NCBI RefSeq assembly: GCF_047739415.1
Contig: NZ_JBIQOE010000218.1
Coordinates: 15,254 to 79,253, forward strand
Source of the DNA: Mesobacillus sp.
Lineage (GTDB): Bacteria > Bacillota > Bacilli > Bacillales > Cytobacillaceae
Length of the DNA stretch: 64,000 bases
Reading direction: 5' to 3'
Numbering within the stretch: the first letter of the stretch is position 1; every line of letters begins with the position of its first letter. Below, in pieces: positions 11,126 to 20,083 of this stretch. The position numbers and the translations under genes are program-made. Under the pieces are notes generated by a model. The model was given only the letters and a program-made list of their open reading frames with translations. It was not told where the DNA came from and made no database searches.

Positions 11126-11986
11126 ATGGAAACTATTTCAGATGTAAACATTTACGAGTACACAGACCAAAAGCTAAAAGCTCACTTTCAAAATAACGAA
11201 CAGTTTAACTTTGAATTAGCCCAAACTTTCAATTTTTATAAAGAACTTCTCCAGGATCTCATTAATGATTCCGATAGAGAACGGCTGGAAAAAGATCTGT
11301 TTCAAAGCGTAAAGGCTCAAATATTTAACGGATACTATATGGCGCAAGAATTACTTCAAAGTGAAGAAGCTAACTTTAATGATGAATGGTTTAAACAATC
11401 CAAAGGAATGATCGCACAGCAGTTACCGGATATGCTAAGAATGGCTACCAATTATGACATAGACGGAATAATTACTCATGAGCCGCTAAAAGCTCTAGCT
11501 AGTTGGCTTGTAATTGAATACGAAGGGGTTTATCCTCTATTGATGGATATCTCCATAAATACGGCTTGTATGGGGGCAAAATGGGCCTTTATTGATGAAG
11601 GGGAGAAGAGGGGGATACCGACCTATCAATCCCAATATCTTGGCTTATTATCCCACATTGATGATGTATTGTTTATTGACCCTCAAACCTATCTCAGCTG
11701 TGAATACACTAACGATAGCAGTGAAGTTTGGAATGCCATCACATCCAAACATACAGGTCTTGATAAAATCGCTGAAGTAACAATCATTAAAGTTACAAGC
11801 GGCGAAACCACTGAAAATTACTATATGAACCTTAATATCAAGAACAGTCTATCGATTACAGAGCAGCAAATTCTTATTGATAACCTCGCTGTTAGATTGA
11901 TGCTGAACAAAGAGATAGAAAGAAACCAACTGATTCTCGCAGCTGCTTCAGTTGAAGAATTTTATGTGATTAATAATAATCTTTAG
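11126..11986 (+). CDS. Hypothetical protein
   Basis: 286-aa ORF with RBS AAGGAG upstream, co-directional with the two preceding genes. Confidence 0.5.
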   Translation: METISDVNIYEYTDQKLKAHFQNNEQFNFELAQTFNFYKELLQDLINDSDRERLEKDLFQSVKAQIFNGYYMAQELLQSEEANFNDEWFKQSKGMIAQQLPDMLRMATNYDIDGIITHEPLKALASWLVIEYEGVYPLLMDISINTACMGAKWAFIDEGEKRGIPTYQSQYLGLLSHIDDVLFIDPQTYLSCEYTNDSSEVWNAITSKHTGLDKIAEVTIIKVTSGETTENYYMNLNIKNSLSITEQQILIDNLAVRLMLNKEIERNQLILAAASVEEFYVINNNL

Positions 11987-11995
11987 GATAAACAT

Positions 11996-12044
11996 AAAAA
12001 GCCGCTCTCCTAATACTAATACATGTACTAAGAGGGCGGCTTTT
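11996..12044. terminator. Bidirectional terminator between convergent genes
   Basis: Stem gccgctctc (12001-12009) / gagggcggc (12032-12040), flanked by an A-run and a T-run. Confidence 0.6.
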
Positions 12045-12052
12045 ATTCTATT

Positions 12053-12319
12053 CTAGTTACTCAATTCAAAATCATTCATCTCTACTTCGCCTTTTAACCA
12101 TTTAAGGCATAAATCCTCTGTAATGAACTCTTCAACCCAACACTCCCCGGATGAATTGTCAATACCAATGTAATGGCCGTTTTCCTCAACCATGAATAAC
12201 CCTATAGGTTTATAATTATTCATAATATCAGAAGCTTCTCTTTTATCAATCTTTTTTATTTTATTTCTGTTCTCTTTAATATCTGTGGTTTCTGGATTTC
12301 TCTCCGCAATGTTATTCAT
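12053..12319 (-). CDS. Small hypothetical protein, last gene of the E1/E2/JAB array
   Basis: 88 aa. RBS-like AGAGGGA upstream. Lies 38 nt downstream of the E1-like gene on the same strand. Confidence 0.45.
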   Translation of the reverse strand: MNNIAERNPETTDIKENRNKIKKIDKREASDIMNNYKPIGLFMVEENGHYIGIDNSSGECWVEEFITEDLCLKWLKGEVEMNDFELSN

Positions 12320-12357
12320 AATAAGTCCCTCTTTCTCACAAAATTATTATCTCTCTC

Positions 12358-13257
12358 CTAAGATGCAATCGTTAATTTCTCTGATGACTGCACATCAGTC
12401 GAACGCATATAACCTTTCTTCGCATGAAAAAAAGTGATGTGTGAGTTAATATTATAATCCTCAATAAGGATTGTAAGTATGTTTGCAATTGACAAGGCTG
12501 CTAATTTGTTCACTATTAATCTTTGAGGTTCAGAAGCAGTTAGTTCGGTACAAGAAAGCTCACTCGGCCGAATATCGTCTTGGTCCTGAAGAACATCAGG
12601 GAACATTTCAGCCATTGGTGCTTGTTTGAATAAATTCATCCTTACACCAGTGACTACCTGACCGCTCCATCCACTTTCACGGTAATCCCGTAACTCTTCT
12701 TCGGTCCATCTCTCTTTTGGCCTCGTTCTCCAATCATCAGGTACCTTTGTTGACTCATTTCCTGCATCGATATATACTACAGTCTTCATTTTCTTAAACA
12801 GTTCATGAATGACTCGGCGAGTATAGTTATTGTCCACACAGCCCACAATTATCGGCAAAAACAATTTATTACATTGTCGCTCTCCCTCATCATACATGGA
12901 CATGTATTCCATTGAAAAAAGAGCCCGCAAGTCTTTCTCTGATTCGATATAAGAATCGCTAAAAGAGCCAATGTCAATTCCATAAGCAGCCGAATAGCGG
13001 CTTGCCAAAACATCAGCCTTTTTCAAACCTACCTCCTGTGGCAGAAATAACTGATTTCCTAAATTTTTTTCTTCAATAACGTCAGGGTCAGCAATTACAT
13101 ACGCCGCTTTTGTCTTCGTTGTCCCTAATAGTTGAGCGATATGTTGAACAACATAACCACCCGTGCCTCCAGCTCCGACCTGCACAATAAAGGGGAAAAC
13201 ACCTTGATAGTCGTACCAATTATCTTTAGCTGCTTTTAGAATGTTAATTCCGTTCAT
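12358..13257 (-). CDS. ThiF/MoeB/E1-like adenylyltransferase (ubiquitin-activating-enzyme-like)
   Basis: 299 aa. Rossmann motif VQVGAGGTGGYVV, ThiF-type box DPDVIEEKNLGNQLF and the downstream VGCVDNNYTRRVI. Candidate catalytic Cys in LSCTELT. The start overlaps the JAB gene stop (ATGA). Confidence 0.75.
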   Translation of the reverse strand: MNGINILKAAKDNWYDYQGVFPFIVQVGAGGTGGYVVQHIAQLLGTTKTKAAYVIADPDVIEEKNLGNQLFLPQEVGLKKADVLASRYSAAYGIDIGSFSDSYIESEKDLRALFSMEYMSMYDEGERQCNKLFLPIIVGCVDNNYTRRVIHELFKKMKTVVYIDAGNESTKVPDDWRTRPKERWTEEELRDYRESGWSGQVVTGVRMNLFKQAPMAEMFPDVLQDQDDIRPSELSCTELTASEPQRLIVNKLAALSIANILTILIEDYNINSHITFFHAKKGYMRSTDVQSSEKLTIAS

Positions 13258-14195
13258 GCTACCACAACCTCAACTTTTGACATATCAAAGGCTGGAAGCG
13301 ATTTAAACGGATCCTCAAACACCAGATGAAAAGGCACTGGTTTATGGCCTTCATCCTCAGAAATAAAGCAACGAATTGTTATATCCGGCAATGGCTTTTG
13401 CAAACCTCCTACGATAGCATAAATCATCCCAGGAAGCCGTTCTGATTCGTTATCTTGAGTAGAGGGGAGGGGAGCCATACAATGGTGAGAATGAATCTCT
13501 AAAACCTTTATGGCATCTTCAACTCTCTCTGCAATATCGTATGAAGATTCGCTAACTTCACACCAATATTTATGAACCCGCTGTGCCGGAACATCTAAAA
13601 AGAAATGCCCTGTTGCACTTTTGTAAATGTCAGCATGGATTTCTAGAGATTGTTCAGCGTACAAACGGGCCAAGCTTATAAATTGGCTTAATACATTGAA
13701 CGGAACGGGAAAAGAAACGCCTTCTTGCGAAGACGTTTCTCTACAATTCCCTTTCTTTTTTGCTTTCATGACTGGAATGACAATATTCTTGTCCTTCAAA
13801 TAAACCATCTCCGTCATGTCCTTTACAAGTTCAGGAAAATCCTTTTCCATTCTTTTGCGAAGTAATTCTCCATCCAATGGACGTCTTTCTGTTTCTCCGT
13901 CTTTCTTTTTGACTAGCAAGCCTTCAGCTAATTCCTCTGAAGTAAAATAGGAAATGATTTCGATGGATTCACCAAAGTAACGAATCACTGTATCCTGGTT
14001 TACTTCAAAAAGATCTTTTTCCGTCCCCTTATTTTCGGCGCTAGTAGCAGCCTTCTTATTTTCCACCTGTTTACGCAATTCTTCGGCTTTTCGAGCCCTT
14101 TCTTCTTCCTCCTGCTTTTTTTGCTCAGCGTATTCATCAACAATCCCAAACATTGAAAAAATATCTTCCTGCCCTGCGATTACATTCTTAGTCAT
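13254..14195 (-). CDS. JAB/MPN+ (JAMM) metalloprotease with N-terminal coiled-coil and a Ubl-like segment
   Basis: 313 aa. Exact JAMM motif H235-S-H237-x7-S245-x2-D248 (EIHSHHCMAPLPSTQD). Candidate upstream Glu at WCEVSES. Residues about 62-149 (VIRYFGESIEI...DFPELVKDMTEMVYLKDKNIVIPVMKAKKKG) look like a beta-grasp ending in Gly. Confidence 0.75.
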   Translation of the reverse strand: MTKNVIAGQEDIFSMFGIVDEYAEQKKQEEEERARKAEELRKQVENKKAATSAENKGTEKDLFEVNQDTVIRYFGESIEIISYFTSEELAEGLLVKKKDGETERRPLDGELLRKRMEKDFPELVKDMTEMVYLKDKNIVIPVMKAKKKGNCRETSSQEGVSFPVPFNVLSQFISLARLYAEQSLEIHADIYKSATGHFFLDVPAQRVHKYWCEVSESSYDIAERVEDAIKVLEIHSHHCMAPLPSTQDNESERLPGMIYAIVGGLQKPLPDITIRCFISEDEGHKPVPFHLVFEDPFKSLPAFDMSKVEVVVA

Positions 14196-14212
14196 TAAAA
14201 TCCACTCCTAAT

Positions 14213-14932
14213 CTAATTATTTTTTTTGAATAGATCTCCAAACTTATTGTTACTTGGCATAAGCCAGTCATCATCAAAAGGTTGTTCTTTAATTCGCTCG
14301 ATTAAAGCTCGGAATCTGGATATCCCCAAGGTTGTACGCACACCGTGATCTTCGTTAAACGGAGAGGCAACAAACCACCTAAAGGCACGCTCTAGTTCAA
14401 CGATATCCTTAATTTCTAACCTTTGATTCAACCCCCAGCATACGATCCCATTGCTCTTACCGACATTAGGATATGGGAATACAAACAAAGGGGTATCATC
14501 AGTAACTGGACACCCGTTGTCCTGAACTGCATAGATTCTCATTTCAGATATCTTTAATCCCCTATTTCCAAATGGTACAAGAAGATATTGTAAAACCATT
14601 CGAGGAAACCCAATGGTAAAAAAATTTTCTTCTTCTCCATATCGGATTTCCCACATCTTCTTTTCTAATAGCATTGTAACGCGCTGCTTACTACCAGATT
14701 CATTTGAAGAGTAGCGAATGCATCTTGCAGGAAGGGTAGGAGTGCTCTTTTCTTCGTTGCGTTTTGCATCTGCATCGTAAGCATTTTCTGGAGCCTGCTG
14801 TAACGCTTGGATAATATCTTCAACCCGATAATAAAATGGACCTTTCCGCACACCATTGTCACCAATTTGAAAAGCTTCTATTGGGAATTCAGACGATTTT
14901 GGAACATCTGACAGTTCAAATTGCCACCGCAT
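14213..14932 (-). CDS. Prokaryotic E2/UBC-like protein
   Basis: Start taken at the ATG at 14932, which follows AAGGAG at 9-nt spacing; the ORF track begins 20 codons earlier. The E2-like active-site context is FPYPNVGKSNGIVCWG (HPN-like YPN, then Gly-x-x-Cys). Confidence 0.6.
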   Translation of the reverse strand: MRWQFELSDVPKSSEFPIEAFQIGDNGVRKGPFYYRVEDIIQALQQAPENAYDADAKRNEEKSTPTLPARCIRYSSNESGSKQRVTMLLEKKMWEIRYGEEENFFTIGFPRMVLQYLLVPFGNRGLKISEMRIYAVQDNGCPVTDDTPLFVFPYPNVGKSNGIVCWGLNQRLEIKDIVELERAFRWFVASPFNEDHGVRTTLGISRFRALIERIKEQPFDDDWLMPSNNKFGDLFKKNN

Positions 14933-15437
14933 TTGATTCTTGCTCCTTTCTAGTCGGTAATATGTCCAGAAGGACATACAGAACATCAACAAGGTCTATA
15001 GGTCCGTCATCTTCATACCATGTCAAAATTACTCCATTTTCAATTGAAGTAATCTCACCATAGCCACAATAAAAATCCGCGCCTCCACCGATGGTTCCTG
15101 AGCGAATTTTTGTATGGTCAATACGATCATCCAGGATAACAATAATTCCCGTGCCTTCCAGGTCATCATGATGGTGAGAAAGGCCGGCACGTTCGCACCA
15201 ATATGTTTTATCAGGAATCTCTTCTTCACCGCTATGAGGAAACCAATAATCTACGATAGTAAAGACGGAATTCACTGTATGCATGAAAATGTCCCAGTCA
15301 TATTCCTGTCCAAAATCATAATTAACCACATAGTGGGGGAACTTTTTTAAATCCACACCATAGTCAAATGCTAGTTTCATTAGCATAAGATTTTGAACTG
15401 TCCCCTTAAGACTATAGTAATCATCATGTGACTCCAT
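14916..15437 (-). CDS. Acidic hypothetical protein (173 aa) in the Ubl-system array
   Basis: RBS GGAGGGA. Lies 10 nt after the upstream gene and overlaps the E2-like start by 17 nt. No family recognised. Confidence 0.5.
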   Translation of the reverse strand: MESHDDYYSLKGTVQNLMLMKLAFDYGVDLKKFPHYVVNYDFGQEYDWDIFMHTVNSVFTIVDYWFPHSGEEEIPDKTYWCERAGLSHHHDDLEGTGIIVILDDRIDHTKIRSGTIGGGADFYCGYGEITSIENGVILTWYEDDGPIDLVDVLYVLLDILPTRKEQESNAVAI

Positions 15438-15447
15438 AATTTCCCTC

Positions 15448-15786
15448 CTACAGAAATAAGAAAGGGGAAGGTGGCCTCTGTTTCGGCAACTTCCCCAGAC
15501 TGTATATTTTATTAGATAGAGCCATTATCCGCGTATATGGATGATTAGGATCAATGCAAATACGTCCCTCTGTGTCTTCATCAGAAAGAACAGAATCTAA
15601 TCCTTCATACACTTCGATTAGATCCTCGAATTCAAACTTTGAGAAGTTTATATCCTCCGTACATAACTGGTTCTGAATCACCATAAGCACATAGTTTTGT
15701 CCGATTTGCTCTTCAACACTTCCTTGTCCCTTATCGTTAATAAGTTCGGAGAAGGTGGAGAAACTAAATCCATTTCTCATTGTCAT
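15448..15786 (-). CDS. Hypothetical protein (112 aa) in the Ubl-system array
   Basis: RBS GGAGG. Lies 35 nt downstream of dnaN. No family recognised. Confidence 0.5.
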   Translation of the reverse strand: MTMRNGFSFSTFSELINDKGQGSVEEQIGQNYVLMVIQNQLCTEDINFSKFEFEDLIEVYEGLDSVLSDEDTEGRICIDPNHPYTRIMALSNKIYSLGKLPKQRPPSPFLFL

Positions 15787-15821
15787 ACCTCCTTAAAAAC
15801 AGGAAGGAATCCTCCCTGTCT

Positions 15822-16949
15822 TTATGTTGTTCTTACCGGCAACACAAGCTGAAGCTCTTCGTAGGTTGATGAACATGGAGTAACCAGAAAAGGCCTCATG
15901 TTACCCTGGTATTTAAAGTTGATATATTCATCATCTATCGCTTTTAGAGCGTCAATCATGTATTTGGAAGAGAAAGAAATGGTAAAATCGTCTTCACCGC
16001 TCAATTCCTCGTAATCAACCACTTCTACACCTTTACCAATTTGCGATTGGTGAGTGGAGATTGTGGCTGCTCCATTAACGTGAAGTTTTACCACTCCGCC
16101 TTTTCCATTGTCTGCTCCATTGGCCAATCCGCTTATACGATCAAGACTCTCCAAAAATTCTTTGCGACTTATTTTCATTTCCGCTCTGAACTCTGTAGGG
16201 ATAAGACGTGAAGTATCAGGATAATTGCCTTCTAACAAGCGGCTATAAAAGAATAACGCTCCATTTTTAAACACCACTTGATTATCAGATTCACAATATA
16301 GGCTAACATCCTCTTGTAAATCGAAGGTTTTGGCCAGTTTATCTAATGACTTTGCTGGAATAACCAATCTTAAGTCTTTCTTTCCTTCCACCTTTGACTT
16401 AACTTGGCCCAAACGGTGAGAATCCGTACAGACCAGCTGCATACAATCTTCCGTGATAGATAGATTGACGCCTGTTAGGATAGGCCGAATTTCCGAATCT
16501 GATGCAGCGAAAGATGTTTTCTTTACAAAAGAATTGAAATCTGTACCTTTCAATGTGAAGGTAGGTTTTTCAATATCAAAAGTAGGTAGTTTCGGATATT
16601 CTTCCGGATCAAAAGTGTTAAGATTGAATTCTGATTTTTTACCATATTTAATGGTCAAATTAAAGTCGATTAGTTTTAATTCCAAATTCTTCTTCAGCTT
16701 TTTCGAGATATCCGATACTTGCTTCGGTAGAACAGTCTTGCCTGGAACAAACACATCGACATTTTCACCATCAACCGGAATATGATAACGGAAAGATTCC
16801 GTGCTGTCAGAACCAACCAAGATGATCTCTTGTTCATTAACTTCCATAAAGACGCCTTGAAGAATGGGAATACTGTGCTTAGCATTTACCACTTTCTCCA
16901 CCTTTTTTAGTGCTTCAGCAAAAAGTTGACTATCGATTTTAAAATGCAT
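15822..16949 (-). CDS. dnaN: DNA polymerase III beta sliding clamp, extra-chromosomal copy
   Basis: 375 aa. DnaN-like N-terminus MHFKIDSQLFAEALKKVEKVV...IPILQGVFMEV. Typical length and three-domain layout, with C-terminus MRPFLVTP...LVLPVR. Confidence 0.85.
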   Translation of the reverse strand: MHFKIDSQLFAEALKKVEKVVNAKHSIPILQGVFMEVNEQEIILVGSDSTESFRYHIPVDGENVDVFVPGKTVLPKQVSDISKKLKKNLELKLIDFNLTIKYGKKSEFNLNTFDPEEYPKLPTFDIEKPTFTLKGTDFNSFVKKTSFAASDSEIRPILTGVNLSITEDCMQLVCTDSHRLGQVKSKVEGKKDLRLVIPAKSLDKLAKTFDLQEDVSLYCESDNQVVFKNGALFFYSRLLEGNYPDTSRLIPTEFRAEMKISRKEFLESLDRISGLANGADNGKGGVVKLHVNGAATISTHQSQIGKGVEVVDYEELSGEDDFTISFSSKYMIDALKAIDDEYINFKYQGNMRPFLVTPCSSTYEELQLVLPVRTT

Positions 16950-16980
16950 AATAACTGCCCCCTAGAAAGTTTTTTAATAA

Positions 16981-17014
16981 AAAAGTACAAAAGGATTATC
17001 CTTTTGTACTTTTG
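16981..17014 (-). terminator. Hairpin between the Rad52-like gene and dnaN
   Basis: Stem aaaagtacaaaagga (16981-16995) / tccttttgtactttt (17000-17014), about 15 bp, with U-rich sequence after it on the minus strand. Confidence 0.55.
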
Positions 17015-17026
17015 CCCCGCTTAATA

Positions 17027-18025
17027 TTAAGCTATTTGTTTGATATGCCCTTGTTTTAAGTCCTCTTTAACAAATTGAACGATCTCTTTTACCTGTTCCA
17101 AAGTGACATGGGTAAAGCAGGAAAAAAGATTTTCAACTCTGATTTTGGGATTTAAAATCTGCACATAATTTAAGACATCATCCATTGAAATTTTATAATG
17201 ATTAGCAACCACGGTTAAATCATTGACTGGCCGCAACACATTGTAATACTGCCTAAACTCAGCTTCAGATGCTTTTTCAAAGACCTCAGTAATAGTTGTT
17301 TGTTGGATACTCGGATTGATTCGTTTGAACAAAGGCATGATCCAATTAGAATGTTCAGTAAGCCCGGTATTTTTTAGATATTCCGTAATCACTTTAACAG
17401 CTGTACCGCGATTAAATTCGGATTTTTCATCTGACATTTGCGGTTTTTGCTGTTGTTGACTAGATGTTTGATTATTAGGGTTTCTCCTTTGTTCGTTTCC
17501 TTCGGAAAAAGAATGCTTTTTTTCATTTTCAGGTAACGCCCATATCGGTAACTTGGGAGGAAGCCAATAACCATAAACATTATTCTTTTTATCGTTTATT
17601 CGTATTGCTCCATCCCGTTTGTCGTCAAAAACTTCCACAAACATGGATTCAAGCTTATACAGATATCGTCCAATACCCCACTGTACAGCTGCTCTTTTCA
17701 TGGCGCCTGAAAGTCCGCCTTTAAGCGATTCAATCTCTGTCTGTTCAGCACCGTCCGATTTTTCAACCCATTCACCATCTATGAAGCAAGAGATAGTGCA
17801 TAAAATTCCATCTTTGAAATCCTTGTAGCTGTTCTTCCAGCCGGCAGGACCGAAGACTTCATCAAGGCGGTTTTGAATTGCCCTGTTTGTTACATAAGCC
17901 AATACCATTGCCCACTTCTTTCCATTTTTAATACCTGAATGACTGACACGCCATTCGATATCCTTAGATGGAAATGGAGCCTGCAGCTTACTGATAACTT
18001 CTTCCATACTACAATCTTGTTTCAT
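17027..18025 (-). CDS. Rad52/Rad22-family single-strand annealing protein with Q-rich linker and extra C-terminal domain
   Basis: 332 aa. DIEWRV...GLSGAMKRAAVQWGIGRYLY matches the Rad52-like SSAP signature. A TSSQQQQKPQ linker is followed by about 120 aa of unknown domain. Confidence 0.7.
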   Translation of the reverse strand: MKQDCSMEEVISKLQAPFPSKDIEWRVSHSGIKNGKKWAMVLAYVTNRAIQNRLDEVFGPAGWKNSYKDFKDGILCTISCFIDGEWVEKSDGAEQTEIESLKGGLSGAMKRAAVQWGIGRYLYKLESMFVEVFDDKRDGAIRINDKKNNVYGYWLPPKLPIWALPENEKKHSFSEGNEQRRNPNNQTSSQQQQKPQMSDEKSEFNRGTAVKVITEYLKNTGLTEHSNWIMPLFKRINPSIQQTTITEVFEKASEAEFRQYYNVLRPVNDLTVVANHYKISMDDVLNYVQILNPKIRVENLFSCFTHVTLEQVKEIVQFVKEDLKQGHIKQIA

Positions 18026-18441
18026 TGAAAACAGCCCCTCTTAAAGTATTTATAACCTTCCACCTCATTTTTTTGCTGAAAACACAAAAAAACCTTTGAG
18101 ATTTGATATAGGACAGAAAAGCATAGAAATGCTTATCTATCATTCATCAACCTCAAAGGTTGCAGTGTTTGTTAGAAACCGCTAATCCAAAATAGGATTG
18201 CAAAAAAATTAAAAAGAAAAAGGTTATAGGAAAATTATACATTTGATATGAGGAAAGGACAACTGAAAATTTATTGCATAGTTGAATTTAGTTTAAATGG
18301 AGCTTTAATTCGGAATAAATTATGCTATAATTGAAACTAACTAAATTATTTTAAAGCGACGACCGCTAGGCACCCCCCTCATTTTAGGGGGATGTTTAGT
18401 GGTTTTTTTGTTTTCACTAAATAAAAGAAGGAGGAAAGATT

Positions 18442-18678
18442 GTGGTTGAATTTAAGAAGATAAAGCCATTAAACGATGCCGAAAGGCTGATTATTCTACG
18501 AAAAAGATTGAATCTCAGTCAATTTCAATTCGCCCAGGAACTAGGGATTAGTTCAAGTTACTTGGGGCAAGCAGAACGCGGAAACTGCTCATTTAGCCCT
18601 TTCTTAAAAGAGCGAATAAATGAATACCTAAAACGGGAGAAAGAAATTAATGAAAAAGATTTATTTGGCAATAAGTGA
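18442..18678 (+). CDS. XRE-family HTH transcriptional regulator
   Basis: 78 aa with LRKRLNLSQFQFAQELGISSSYLGQAERG. RBS AAGGAGG. Divergent from the Rad52-like gene. Confidence 0.7.
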   Translation: MVEFKKIKPLNDAERLIILRKRLNLSQFQFAQELGISSSYLGQAERGNCSFSPFLKERINEYLKREKEINEKDLFGNK

Positions 18679-20083
18679 AGAGGAATCCCTCGGGATTAAA
18701 CCTGTACTATATAAAAAAATACCCAATAGCGAAATCCTTTTTATATCTGACCAGGAAATAGAAGAGGTCTTATCCTCCTCTTTCCATATGCTTATTGTTC
18801 CGTCACATAAAATTGATTTATCCGAAATAAACACATCTGATTTGGCCGGAACGCTTGTTATATTGGATCCATCTCATACTGAATCTTTTTCTGTAAGTAG
18901 AAATGTTGATACATATAATTCGATAGATAACTTTAAAGTAGCTATCCTTACTAAGGATTTAGAAAATCAGGATTTAAAAATAGAAAACAACACATTGAGT
19001 TTAAAGCAAAACTTTGACCATGGGGAAGAAAAGGCCCAACACAAAGAGCCATCCACTCAAAAAAATGAAGTCAGGACGTTTGAAGGTTCAAAACTTACTA
19101 AAGAAACGCGAAAAGCTATGAACAATGTTAATGAAACGGAAGAGGGGAACCTCAGTAAGCCAGTAAACCTGGAAGTTCTTCCTTCTGCACCATTTTCAAA
19201 GGAAGATCCTATTCTTTCTTTGGAACCAGAACATGAGTTGAAAACAAATAGAGCAAAGTTAATAAGAGAAAATAATTTCAATTTTGGAAAATGGAAAGGA
19301 AATAAAATAATAGGAGTATGGTCGCCTCTTGCGACAAATGGTGTTTCTACTTTTGTAATGAATTACGCTATGTTTCTAAGTGATTTTGATATCGACATAA
19401 TGGTGTTGGAGCCTCTAAAAAAGGACCCTGTTCTAAAAAGCAAATTAACGCGTTATCAATCAGTCCCGGATAACTGGGTATCATTTTTTGAAGCTCTTCA
19501 TAATGAAGAGCTTGATATTAATTTAGTTAAGTGGTTTTTTAGAGGGGTTTACTGGCTTCCACTTCAAAAGAATGACTATCTGGGCGAGAAATGGACAAAT
19601 CGAGATATCAATGAATACATGAAGAACCTAAAGAAGTGCGATATCGGTTTTGTAGACTTACCTTCTAAAGAAATAGAGTCCTTTACTGTAGAAGTATTGA
19701 AGCATTTAGATGAATTATGGATCATCATAGACAATAGATATGATCAAACTCTGGAGGAAATAGAAGAGTTTAATAGGATTAGACAGTATAGTTCAACTTT
19801 TAACTTTGCCACTAAATTGATAGTCACGCGGTGCCCTGATGAGGAATGGGCAAAGGATTTAGCCAAAGAACTTGATTTCCCTTTAATAGGGGTACTACCT
19901 TCCATGGATGCGGAAATACAGATGTCTGAGAGAGGTCACAAGCCGCTCCTAGATTATTTTCGTAGCAGGAAAAAATTAACCCCTATCTTTGAGGTCATTA
20001 CAACTCATTTACTTGGTTCTTATTTCGATAAATATAAACCTACTCCTTGGAAAAGAATGAAAAGAATTCTTTCGAAAGGTTGA
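18650..20083 (+). CDS. Hypothetical protein; C-terminal ParA/MinD/CpaE-like fold with a degenerate Walker A
   Basis: 477 aa. IIGVWSPLATNGVSTFVMNYA occupies the P-loop position, and CDIGFVDLPS is Walker-B-like. The N-terminal approximately 90 aa have receiver-like alternation. Overlaps the XRE gene by 29 nt. Confidence 0.35.
   Translation: MKKIYLAISEEESLGIKPVLYKKIPNSEILFISDQEIEEVLSSSFHMLIVPSHKIDLSEINTSDLAGTLVILDPSHTESFSVSRNVDTYNSIDNFKVAILTKDLENQDLKIENNTLSLKQNFDHGEEKAQHKEPSTQKNEVRTFEGSKLTKETRKAMNNVNETEEGNLSKPVNLEVLPSAPFSKEDPILSLEPEHELKTNRAKLIRENNFNFGKWKGNKIIGVWSPLATNGVSTFVMNYAMFLSDFDIDIMVLEPLKKDPVLKSKLTRYQSVPDNWVSFFEALHNEELDINLVKWFFRGVYWLPLQKNDYLGEKWTNRDINEYMKNLKKCDIGFVDLPSKEIESFTVEVLKHLDELWIIIDNRYDQTLEEIEEFNRIRQYSSTFNFATKLIVTRCPDEEWAKDLAKELDFPLIGVLPSMDAEIQMSERGHKPLLDYFRSRKKLTPIFEVITTHLLGSYFDKYKPTPWKRMKRILSKG

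Follow-up and report, generated by a model that had tools for sequence, protein, structure and literature searches.

Ubiquitin-like (Ubl) operons of type 6d were described by Iyer, Burroughs and Aravind in 2006, in a survey whose Table 1 lists Bacillus cereus and B. thuringiensis (PMC1779556). They are the same as the PRTRC system (TIGR03734-03742), in which an E1-like ThiF protein, an E2-like protein of the Prok-E2_D family, a JAB protein and small accessory proteins are encoded in one operon on plasmids or integrative and conjugative elements (ICEs), in the canonical order ParB, E, C, F, B, A, ThiF. The survey makes no mention of a sliding clamp or of Rad52 (PMC1779556), and in the literature that we searched neither an experimental test nor an assigned function was found for these cassettes, which were predicted in that year. 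Here we describe a related operon in a 64,000-nucleotide stretch of Mesobacillus sp. DNA (contig NZ_JBIQOE010000218.1, positions 15,254 to 79,253; hereafter the window), in which genes for a Rad52-like single-strand annealing protein (SSAP) and for a beta sliding clamp (dnaN) precede the Ubl genes. Our best explanation, to which we give a probability of about 0.55 as a whole, is that positions 12053-18262 of the window (minus strand) form a single conserved backbone operon of a large conjugative Bacillales plasmid family, in which an SSAP and a clamp are produced together with a Ubl cascade that would act at the same clamp/single-stranded DNA (ssDNA) site. The descriptive part of this statement, namely an SSAP with a family-specific domain, a clamp of a plasmid group and an attenuator-like hairpin in a seven-gene operon, is solid.

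The window is part of an 82-kb contig with a GC content of 0.38, against 0.42 for the 4.9-Mb genome. Because a type IV coupling protein, a Replic_Relax relaxase, TubZ, a VirB4-like ATPase and a VirB6-like protein are all encoded on it, the contig is judged to be a large conjugative plasmid, or an element resembling one, from a Bacillaceae host. Between 18025 and 12053 the minus strand carries a succession of eight open reading frames (ORFs), which overlap or are separated by short gaps. The SSAP gene comes first and is followed by a hairpin, by dnaN, by genes for two small proteins here called S1 and S2, and by E2-like, JAB-like and E1-like genes. All features of the operon described below lie on this strand and are numbered from the first position of the window.

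The three enzyme genes tie the operon to type 6d. The E2-like product (14213-14992; the ORF was taken from the first possible start, and the real start is probably further in) matched Pfam Prok-E2_D at 36.3 bits (cut-off 25), and the ThiF/E1-like adenylyltransferase (12358-13257) matched Pfam ThiF at 33.5 bits (cut-off 28.1). The JAB-like protease (13254-14195) matched Prok-JAB with an E value of 0.0017, below the cut-off. The locus thereby holds a Prok-E2_D protein, a weakly matching JAB protein and an E1-like protein in one operon on a mobile element, as type 6d operons do, and its order of E2, JAB and ThiF equals the canonical PRTRC B, A and ThiF. The NCBIfam PRTRC models all stayed under their curated thresholds: TIGR03736 gave 82 bits (144.75 required) on the ThiF protein, TIGR03735 gave 19.6 bits (101.8 required; E 5e-4) on the JAB-like protein, and TIGR03737 gave 28 bits (131.45 required), the E2-like protein showing a weak PRTRC_B match. 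Since the curated cut-offs were not reached, the E2, JAB and ThiF proteins are considered related to the PRTRC proteins but not their equivalogs. Further differences concern the upstream half. No match to ParB or to the PRTRC E, C and F models was obtained among the eight operon proteins with Pfam and NCBIfam; TIGR03741 matched nothing anywhere in the genome at E <= 10, and the only genome match of TIGR03742 lay outside the operon (E 0.43). The SSAP and the clamp occupy the position of ParB, S1 takes that of E, and S1 and S2 belong to no recognized family. Judged from domain matches and gene order, the five genes downstream of dnaN are a Firmicutes variant of the type 6d/PRTRC cassette.

The dnaN paralogue (375 aa, 15822-16949) had been called full-length in an earlier note on this DNA, and its product indeed carries all three DNA_pol3_beta domains (PF00712, PF02767 and PF02768; E 7e-32, 8e-32 and 4e-21, all above the cut-offs) and scored 256 bits against TIGR00663 (cut-off 137.65). 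It aligned over its full length (aa 1-374) to B. subtilis DnaN (4tr6). Residues R155, L158, T175, D176, H178, R179, P244, L370, P371 and R373 were invariant in 29 family members, and the TDSHRL loop and the C-terminal LPVR, both invariant in the clamp family, aligned with the same motifs of 4tr6. These residues and motifs line what we take to be the protein-binding cleft, as in the solved E. coli and B. subtilis beta structures. The plasmid protein thus has the hallmarks of a complete beta clamp with an intact peptide-binding cleft, for which ring dimerization, loading and processivity are predicted.

The host genome contains three dnaN genes. The chromosomal one (422 bits) was 41.6% identical to the plasmid copy, and a second chromosomal paralogue (contig C43:57869-58984, locus L053:6959-8122) was 29% identical to it. 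A recent duplication of the host dnaN, which the earlier note had held out as the result that would speak against its view, is rejected by the 41.6% identity and by the separate grouping in the clamp tree. The database search returned graded clusters of clamps with 44-83% identity from Neobacillus, Cytobacillus, Fictibacillus, Mesobacillus, Metabacillus, Sutcliffiella, Halobacillus and Rossellomorea, several of them labelled plasmid-borne, with the chromosomal clamps below at about 42%. In a maximum-likelihood tree of 53 rows (32 module-linked, 17 chromosomal and 4 other clamps), the module-linked clamps all fell on one side of a branch with an SH-aLRT support of 89, and the 17 chromosomal clamps formed their own group (SH-aLRT 91). 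The branches of the module clamps were much longer than the chromosomal ones. By this phylogeny, for which the earlier note had called, the module clamps are a fast-evolving plasmid group distinct from chromosomal DnaN.

Plasmid clamps of other contexts fell outside the module group: one beside a primase and two SSB genes (L042, Peribacillus asahii plasmid), one beside holB, a 5'-3' exonuclease and a cytosine methyltransferase (L043, Virgibacillus plasmid), and one within a non-ribosomal peptide synthetase (NRPS) cluster (L044, plasmid of Bacillus sp. ZJS3). As other Bacillaceae megaplasmids carry clamps in such differing replication-type contexts, plasmid clamps appear to have been recruited more than once. 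The second chromosomal paralogue of the host, which is flanked by methyltransferase, NUDIX and SelB genes, paired with the NRPS-linked clamp in the tree; both branches are long, so this pairing may be false. In PLSDB, clamp matches were found in 132 of 72,556 records at E <= 1e-40, and 107 of these were Bacillaceae megaplasmids. The description of dnaN on mobile elements as uncommon therefore holds for plasmids in general and fails for Bacillaceae megaplasmids.

The SSAP (332 aa, 17027-18025) combines an annealing core, a Q/N-rich linker and a C-terminal domain. Pfam Rad52_Rad22 (PF04098) covered aa 8-137 (E 5e-20; 72.4 bits, cut-off 20.3), PHROG 1097 covered aa 10-201 (E 3e-76), and aa 11-178 were 55% identical to the Sf6 gp28 / mEp235-type Rad52-like annealases of enterobacterial phages. 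The string GAMKRAAVQWGIGRYLY, singled out earlier as a Rad52-type signature, is present, and the Q-rich linker noted with it was located as a Q/N-rich stretch at about aa 175-200, of a length that varies among relatives. The core is accordingly of the Rad52/Sak type, with predicted ring formation and ssDNA annealing. A scan with P0197 retrieved one Ruminiclostridium locus with a match to the N-domain only, where our own hidden Markov model (HMM) found no clamp. Group II introns (Rfam RF02004 and RF00029, sense strand) interrupt the SSAP gene at an identical spot just after the GIGRYL motif in relatives on a Cytobacillus-type plasmid and on B. cereus-group plasmids (L021:2653-5411, L028:574-3340 and L033:7376-10000). 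In L033 a further intron interrupts the ThiF gene, and similar gaps were seen in L031, L034 and L039. The recurrent insertions in the SSAP and ThiF genes mark the operon as a repeated homing target.

The C-terminal domain (135 aa, aa 197-332; 17030-17437) was predicted by AlphaFold2 as seven helices with a mean predicted local distance difference test score (pLDDT) of 93. An extra domain of about 120 aa had been noticed before; the domain exists, but it is no oddity. All module SSAPs have kept it, those of the B. cereus group among them, and an HMM search of 1.84 billion representatives returned 63 proteins with it, nearly all of about 320 aa and with the domain at the C-terminus; eight of nine sampled bearers also had the Rad52 N-domain. 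A few long multi-hit proteins in this search were tetratricopeptide repeat proteins, which we took to be spurious. Among phage records, none covered at least 80% of the SSAP query and none contained the C-terminal domain. From these distributions the domain is confined to this family of plasmid SSAPs and is one of its defining features.

Rad52-like phage SSAPs (Sak of lactococcal phage ul36 and the Sf6 gp28 / mEp235-type proteins of PHROG 1097) share the annealing core, but they differ from the plasmid protein in that the latter has the 135-aa C-terminal domain and a clamp as its neighbour, not SSB, Abc2 or an exonuclease. No nuclease or SSB domain was detected in the operon with Pfam and NCBIfam, the neighbours of the SSAP gene being dnaN downstream and a divergent XRE unit upstream. 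As a partner nuclease or SSB gene does not adjoin it, the locus is not a recombination module of the phage type (SSAP plus exonuclease or SSB/Abc2 partner). A possible likeness is to lambda Red-beta, which likewise has a small helical C-terminal domain behind an SSAP linker; that domain docks the C-terminal tail of SSB (PDB 8tfu) and the exonuclease (6m9k). The domain described here is twice as long and has no sequence similarity to it. With Foldseek, the C-terminal domain had no match at E <= 0.001, and the Red-beta C-terminal domain was returned with a probability of 0.23. In an exhaustive structural comparison with VIA-align, the Red-beta C-terminal domain was among the tied top matches (8tfu_A: Z 5.5, root-mean-square deviation 2.9, 63/70 residues; 6m9k: Z 4.9; match over model residues 10-80). 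This match of a predicted model would be biologically apt for a docking domain behind an SSAP linker, but it was statistically no better than the unrelated neighbouring rows and is treated as no more than a lead. A protein atlas gave no usable lead for the SSAP or for S1.

A hairpin at 16981-17014 (16972-17014 with its U-run) follows the stop codon of the SSAP gene and precedes the ribosome-binding site of dnaN. The stem of about 15 bp reported previously proved to be a perfect one of 15 bp, with a 3-nt loop and followed by a U-run, and its fold energy was -18.8 kcal/mol (z = -3.1 against shuffles). A stem-loop followed by UUUUUUAUU was present at the same place in all relatives examined, and an alignment of 23 non-identical loci contained compensatory changes in all of the 11 consensus pairs. 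Because it is conserved in place and shows compensatory changes in every consensus pair, we regard the hairpin as an RNA element under selection that is built like an intrinsic terminator: a stable, conserved stem-loop with a U-run, for which termination is predicted. It was not listed by a simple terminator scanner, probably since the maximal stem includes part of the T-run.

The hairpin does not seem to uncouple dnaN from the SSAP gene, as would be the case if it ended all transcription and dnaN were regulated separately. Only about 35 nt, including the ribosome-binding site, separate it from the dnaN start codon, which leaves little room for a separate dnaN promoter, and the same arrangement was found in every relative. 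On the simplest and most likely reading, the hairpin acts as a partial terminator and would thereby keep SSAP output well above that of the downstream proteins. The transcript material consisted of assembled contigs from 'metatranscriptomic WGA' runs, the RNA nature of which is a guess, no carrier run being recorded as RNA; one contig from a run so labelled covers 16488-17975 and crosses the hairpin, which lends weak support to read-through. Upstream, the leader 5' of the SSAP gene (about 200 nt) contains a long inverted repeat, AACCTTTGAG ... CTCAAAGGTT, read from the sequence and ending in a T-run (18085-18161), which is possibly a leader attenuator. As the transcript would then hold two terminator-like elements, the whole operon might conceivably be controlled by antitermination, and the alternative is that the hairpin upstream of dnaN is a regulated terminator.

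The order SSAP, hairpin, dnaN, S1, S2, E2-like, JAB, E1-like was kept in about 30 loci from Bacillaceae, Planococcus, Lysinibacillus and B. cereus-group plasmids, down to a clamp identity of about 30%. On eight annotated plasmids representing seven genera (Bacillus sp. S3, C. firmus, Niallia circulans, Halobacillus pLDW-31, Rossellomorea p25, Terribacillus pDMT04, Planococcus and B. cereus 03BB108 pBFI_2), Rad52 is followed by dnaN, two small ORFs, E2 and JAB (mostly annotated as hypothetical) and ThiF. Flanking backbone genes were common to the first seven and not to pBFI_2, which has different flanks, extra genes within the array and a clamp that is 32% identical. Further loci were fetched via an alignment of ThiF and scored with our own HMMs; 22 of them had enough upstream sequence. 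Several of the loci are near-identical, and about 20 lineages are distinct. In 21 of the 22, the SSAP gene and then dnaN lay directly upstream of S1, and dnaN was present in all. The exception, a Brevibacillus locus, has kept dnaN, with an insertion sequence element after it and no recognizable SSAP. The linkage of SSAP, dnaN and Ubl genes that the earlier note pointed out is thus conserved across plasmid lineages with different flanks. No paper describing such an operon, or combining Rad52, a sliding clamp, a plasmid and ThiF, was found in our literature search, and the literature on pCER270/pPER272 and on plasmid-encoded dnaN likewise yielded nothing relevant.

More distant cassettes were also found near replisome genes. 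All four Firmicutes plasmids with distant ThiF cassettes carry their own dnaN. On pBsph of L. sphaericus (L049:7901-13962), JAB-like, ThiF, dnaX and delta-prime genes and a divergent DnaN-like ORF form one co-directional string in which ThiF overlaps dnaX, so that the Ubl cassette is joined to the clamp-loader set of the plasmid. A C. perfringens plasmid has dnaX and SSB genes 6-8 kb upstream of the cassette, and a B. licheniformis plasmid has SSB, RecA and UDG genes upstream of it. From these arrangements, a link of the cassette to clamp or replisome genes recurs independently within Firmicutes. Cassettes apart from an SSAP-dnaN pair occur as well: E2-JAB-ThiF was found without the pair in Cohnella, where an SNF2 helicase and an SMC-hinge protein take its place, in an Anaerolineales metagenome-assembled genome (MAG) and in a second B. 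cereus-group type. On Thermobacillus composti pTHECO01 (L051:5701-10260), S1-S2-E2-JAB-ThiF lies behind two helicase genes and a helix-turn-helix gene, without an adjacent SSAP or dnaN gene, and the plasmid carries its dnaN at a distance of about 28 kb.

The two halves of the operon in the window were closest to different relatives. Its SSAP and DnaN were closest to the versions of Bacillus sp. S3 (62% and 70% identity) and Neobacillus (56% and 71%). Its S1, S2, E2, JAB and ThiF proteins were closest to lineage L012 (47, 34, 62, 59 and 69% identity), the SSAP and DnaN of which were only 30% and 37% identical to those of the window. In tree tests, the ThiF-type grouping was rejected by the DnaN data (approximately unbiased test, p-AU 4e-5) and the DnaN-type grouping by the ThiF data (p-AU 8e-44), which did not reject the L012-type grouping (p 0.07). 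The switch of nearest relative and the tree tests together place a recombination breakpoint between dnaN and S1. A conjugative element's own SSAP, in the form of the Bet/Exo module of SXT/R391 ICEs, reportedly promotes recombination between related elements, a finding attributed to Garriss, Waldor and Burrus in 2009. The plasmid described here resembles those elements in being conjugative with its own SSAP, and its mosaic is the kind of product to be expected; SXT/R391 Bet/Exo differs in its SSAP family and its exonuclease partner and has neither a clamp nor a Ubl system.

S1 (112 aa, 15448-15786) is a small acidic protein and S2 (173 aa, 14916-15437) an acidic, fast-evolving one. Neither had a Pfam or NCBIfam match, S1 had no PHROG match, and fold searches with S1 returned nothing at E <= 0.001 in Foldseek and only tied, low Z values in VIA-align. 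The extreme C-terminus of S1 was the only conserved short linear motif among the array proteins. Nearly all homologues end in F or L followed by I, L or F, mostly after an acidic run; in most of them the tail takes the form DDFI, EIFI or DLFI, an acidic run and then F-I. It reads SPFLFL or similar in the window and the closest relatives of the Ubl half, and EVQFF in Thermobacillus. The tail is disordered in the predicted model, and its type, like S1 itself, travels with the Ubl enzymes and not with the clamp. In the style of its residues it resembles the tails of SSB and clamp-binding peptides. The C-termini of three PRTRC E proteins are ...QPDDLQLF, ...SLADLLG and ...LNDIDLED, of which no more than one is suggestive of a clamp-binding peptide.

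On the explanation that we prefer, the hairpin would terminate part of the transcripts, giving more SSAP than downstream protein, and read-through would supply dnaN and the Ubl genes. The SSAP would coat and anneal plasmid single strands arising from conjugative transfer or replication, and its C-terminal domain might dock a partner, a role that the Red-beta domain has for the SSB tail and the exonuclease. The host clamp loader would load the plasmid clamp, which would tether the host polymerase for complementary-strand synthesis. The Ubl cascade would act at the same clamp/ssDNA site, with the conserved C-terminal tail of S1 as the leading candidate docking peptide. That the Ubl system is functionally coupled to the clamp or to the SSAP can reasonably be derived from the recurrent association, and we put it at somewhat under even odds. 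Covalent modification of either protein is less likely than such coupling and on its own terms unlikely.

Several results weigh against this explanation. By the tree tests, the half with dnaN and the half with the Ubl genes differ in their history, which fits separable functions. The dnaN gene was absent from three canonical proteobacterial PRTRC plasmids (Ralstonia, Pelobacter and Alteromonas), and S1 had no detectable homology to PRTRC protein E in an hhalign profile comparison (probability 0.1). The Red-beta fold match was within the noise range for helical bundles and tied with unrelated helical proteins. The search for QL[SD]LF-like motifs that the earlier note had proposed came out negative: no conserved motif of that type was present in any array protein, and a regular-expression scan of the SSAP, S1, S2, E2, JAB and E1 families found no conserved Q-type clamp-binding motif, its sole cluster being a QW.I.Y stretch in 10 of 24 E2 proteins that was taken as structural. 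It is possible, if doubtful, that two independent modules share one transcript, the SSAP and clamp serving plasmid recombination or replication and the set from S1 to E1 being unrelated to them; the latter might serve defence or counter-defence, as in Bil or CBASS Cap2/Cap3, without touching or needing the clamp or the SSAP. The breakpoint after dnaN, with S1, S2, E2, JAB and E1 travelling jointly, speaks for such modules, and the Thermobacillus five-gene set, the E2-JAB-ThiF cassettes of Cohnella, the Anaerolineales MAG and the second B. cereus-group type, the proteobacterial plasmids without dnaN and the missing canonical clamp-binding motif point the same way. Against independence, adjacency and order hold even where clamp identity drops to about 30% and where the plasmid backbones differ, the dnaN-S1 gap of 35 nt leaves no room for a promoter between the halves, and independent Firmicutes cassette lineages again lie beside a clamp loader or on dnaN-bearing plasmids. 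The same architecture was kept after the halves were exchanged, and an invariant clamp cleft would tolerate such swaps.

A stronger form of coupling, in which the plasmid clamp and SSAP are the platform or substrate of the Ubl cascade and tagging by E1, E2 and JAB controls the copying or recombination of incoming or gapped plasmid DNA, is unlikely on present evidence. The narrower proposal that the clamp or the SSAP is a covalent Ubl substrate, as PCNA is for ubiquitin and SUMO, with the modification switching what the clamp recruits, seems more improbable still. It draws only on genomic association and the eukaryotic precedent; the halves recombine freely, which a tightly co-adapted enzyme-substrate pair would resist, and S1 and S2, which evolve rapidly, are just as plausible as substrates. 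The earlier note's interpretation is thus partly supported as a whole. Its proposals that the module acts on the transferred strand, and that the modification targets the clamp or the SSAP or uses one of them as a platform, are hypotheses, the second of them drawn by analogy; the operon halves recombine independently, and the clamp motif was not found in the array proteins. Extra clamps with protective roles are known from griselimycin self-resistance, and one might ask whether the plasmid clamp serves as a decoy or as a resistant spare, shielding replication against toxins, phage proteins or antibiotics that target clamps. Such precedents, and the plasmid clamp within an NRPS cluster, speak for this role, which we nonetheless consider very improbable: the NRPS-linked clamp and the second chromosomal paralogue of the host both lie outside the module group, the module clamp keeps its canonical cleft unchanged, and its fixed partner is an SSAP and not a toxin or biosynthetic cluster.

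The remaining features of the locus concern its two ends. A putative sigma-70-type promoter (18234-18262; TTGTCC, 17 nt, TATAAT), a consensus match in 10/12 positions in a consensus scan, lies 5' of the SSAP gene, in the stretch from which an XRE-led operon runs divergently. That unit runs into a Toprim/DUF3854 gene and transfer genes; the divergent arrangement is compatible with co-regulation with conjugation and is no evidence for it. At the other end, an 88-aa ORF (12053-12319) matched PHROG 37721, a phage family of unknown function, with an E value of 6e-15; it is absent at that position after the E1 gene in most related plasmids, and its membership of the operon is uncertain. At position 14478, inside the E2-like gene, one base is absent in one run-X9 contig, which is possibly a frameshift variant or an assembly error. 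An Rfam scan of 11500-19000 gave no match, and PLSDB contained no DNA near-identical to the operon.

In eukaryotes, the ubiquitylation and SUMOylation of PCNA bring a sliding clamp and an E1/E2 tagging cascade into one functional context. The likeness of the SSAP-clamp-Ubl operon to that system is an analogy only, and the proteins are not orthologous; if the plasmid clamp and SSAP were the platform or substrate of the cascade, a clamp-sited Ubl cascade would be a prokaryotic counterpart of PCNA modification. A type 6d variant hard-wired to an annealing protein and a sliding clamp offers a concrete place to look for bacterial Ubl targets. The operon is found on dozens of plasmids of culturable Bacillus relatives, including the B. 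cereus group, and its recombined halves amount to a natural swap experiment. If the coupling is not real, the SSAP-clamp pair would still mark an unannotated backbone function of these plasmids, in recombination or strand synthesis with a plasmid-specific SSAP domain. If it is real, protein tagging centred on a clamp would no longer count as an invention of eukaryotes.

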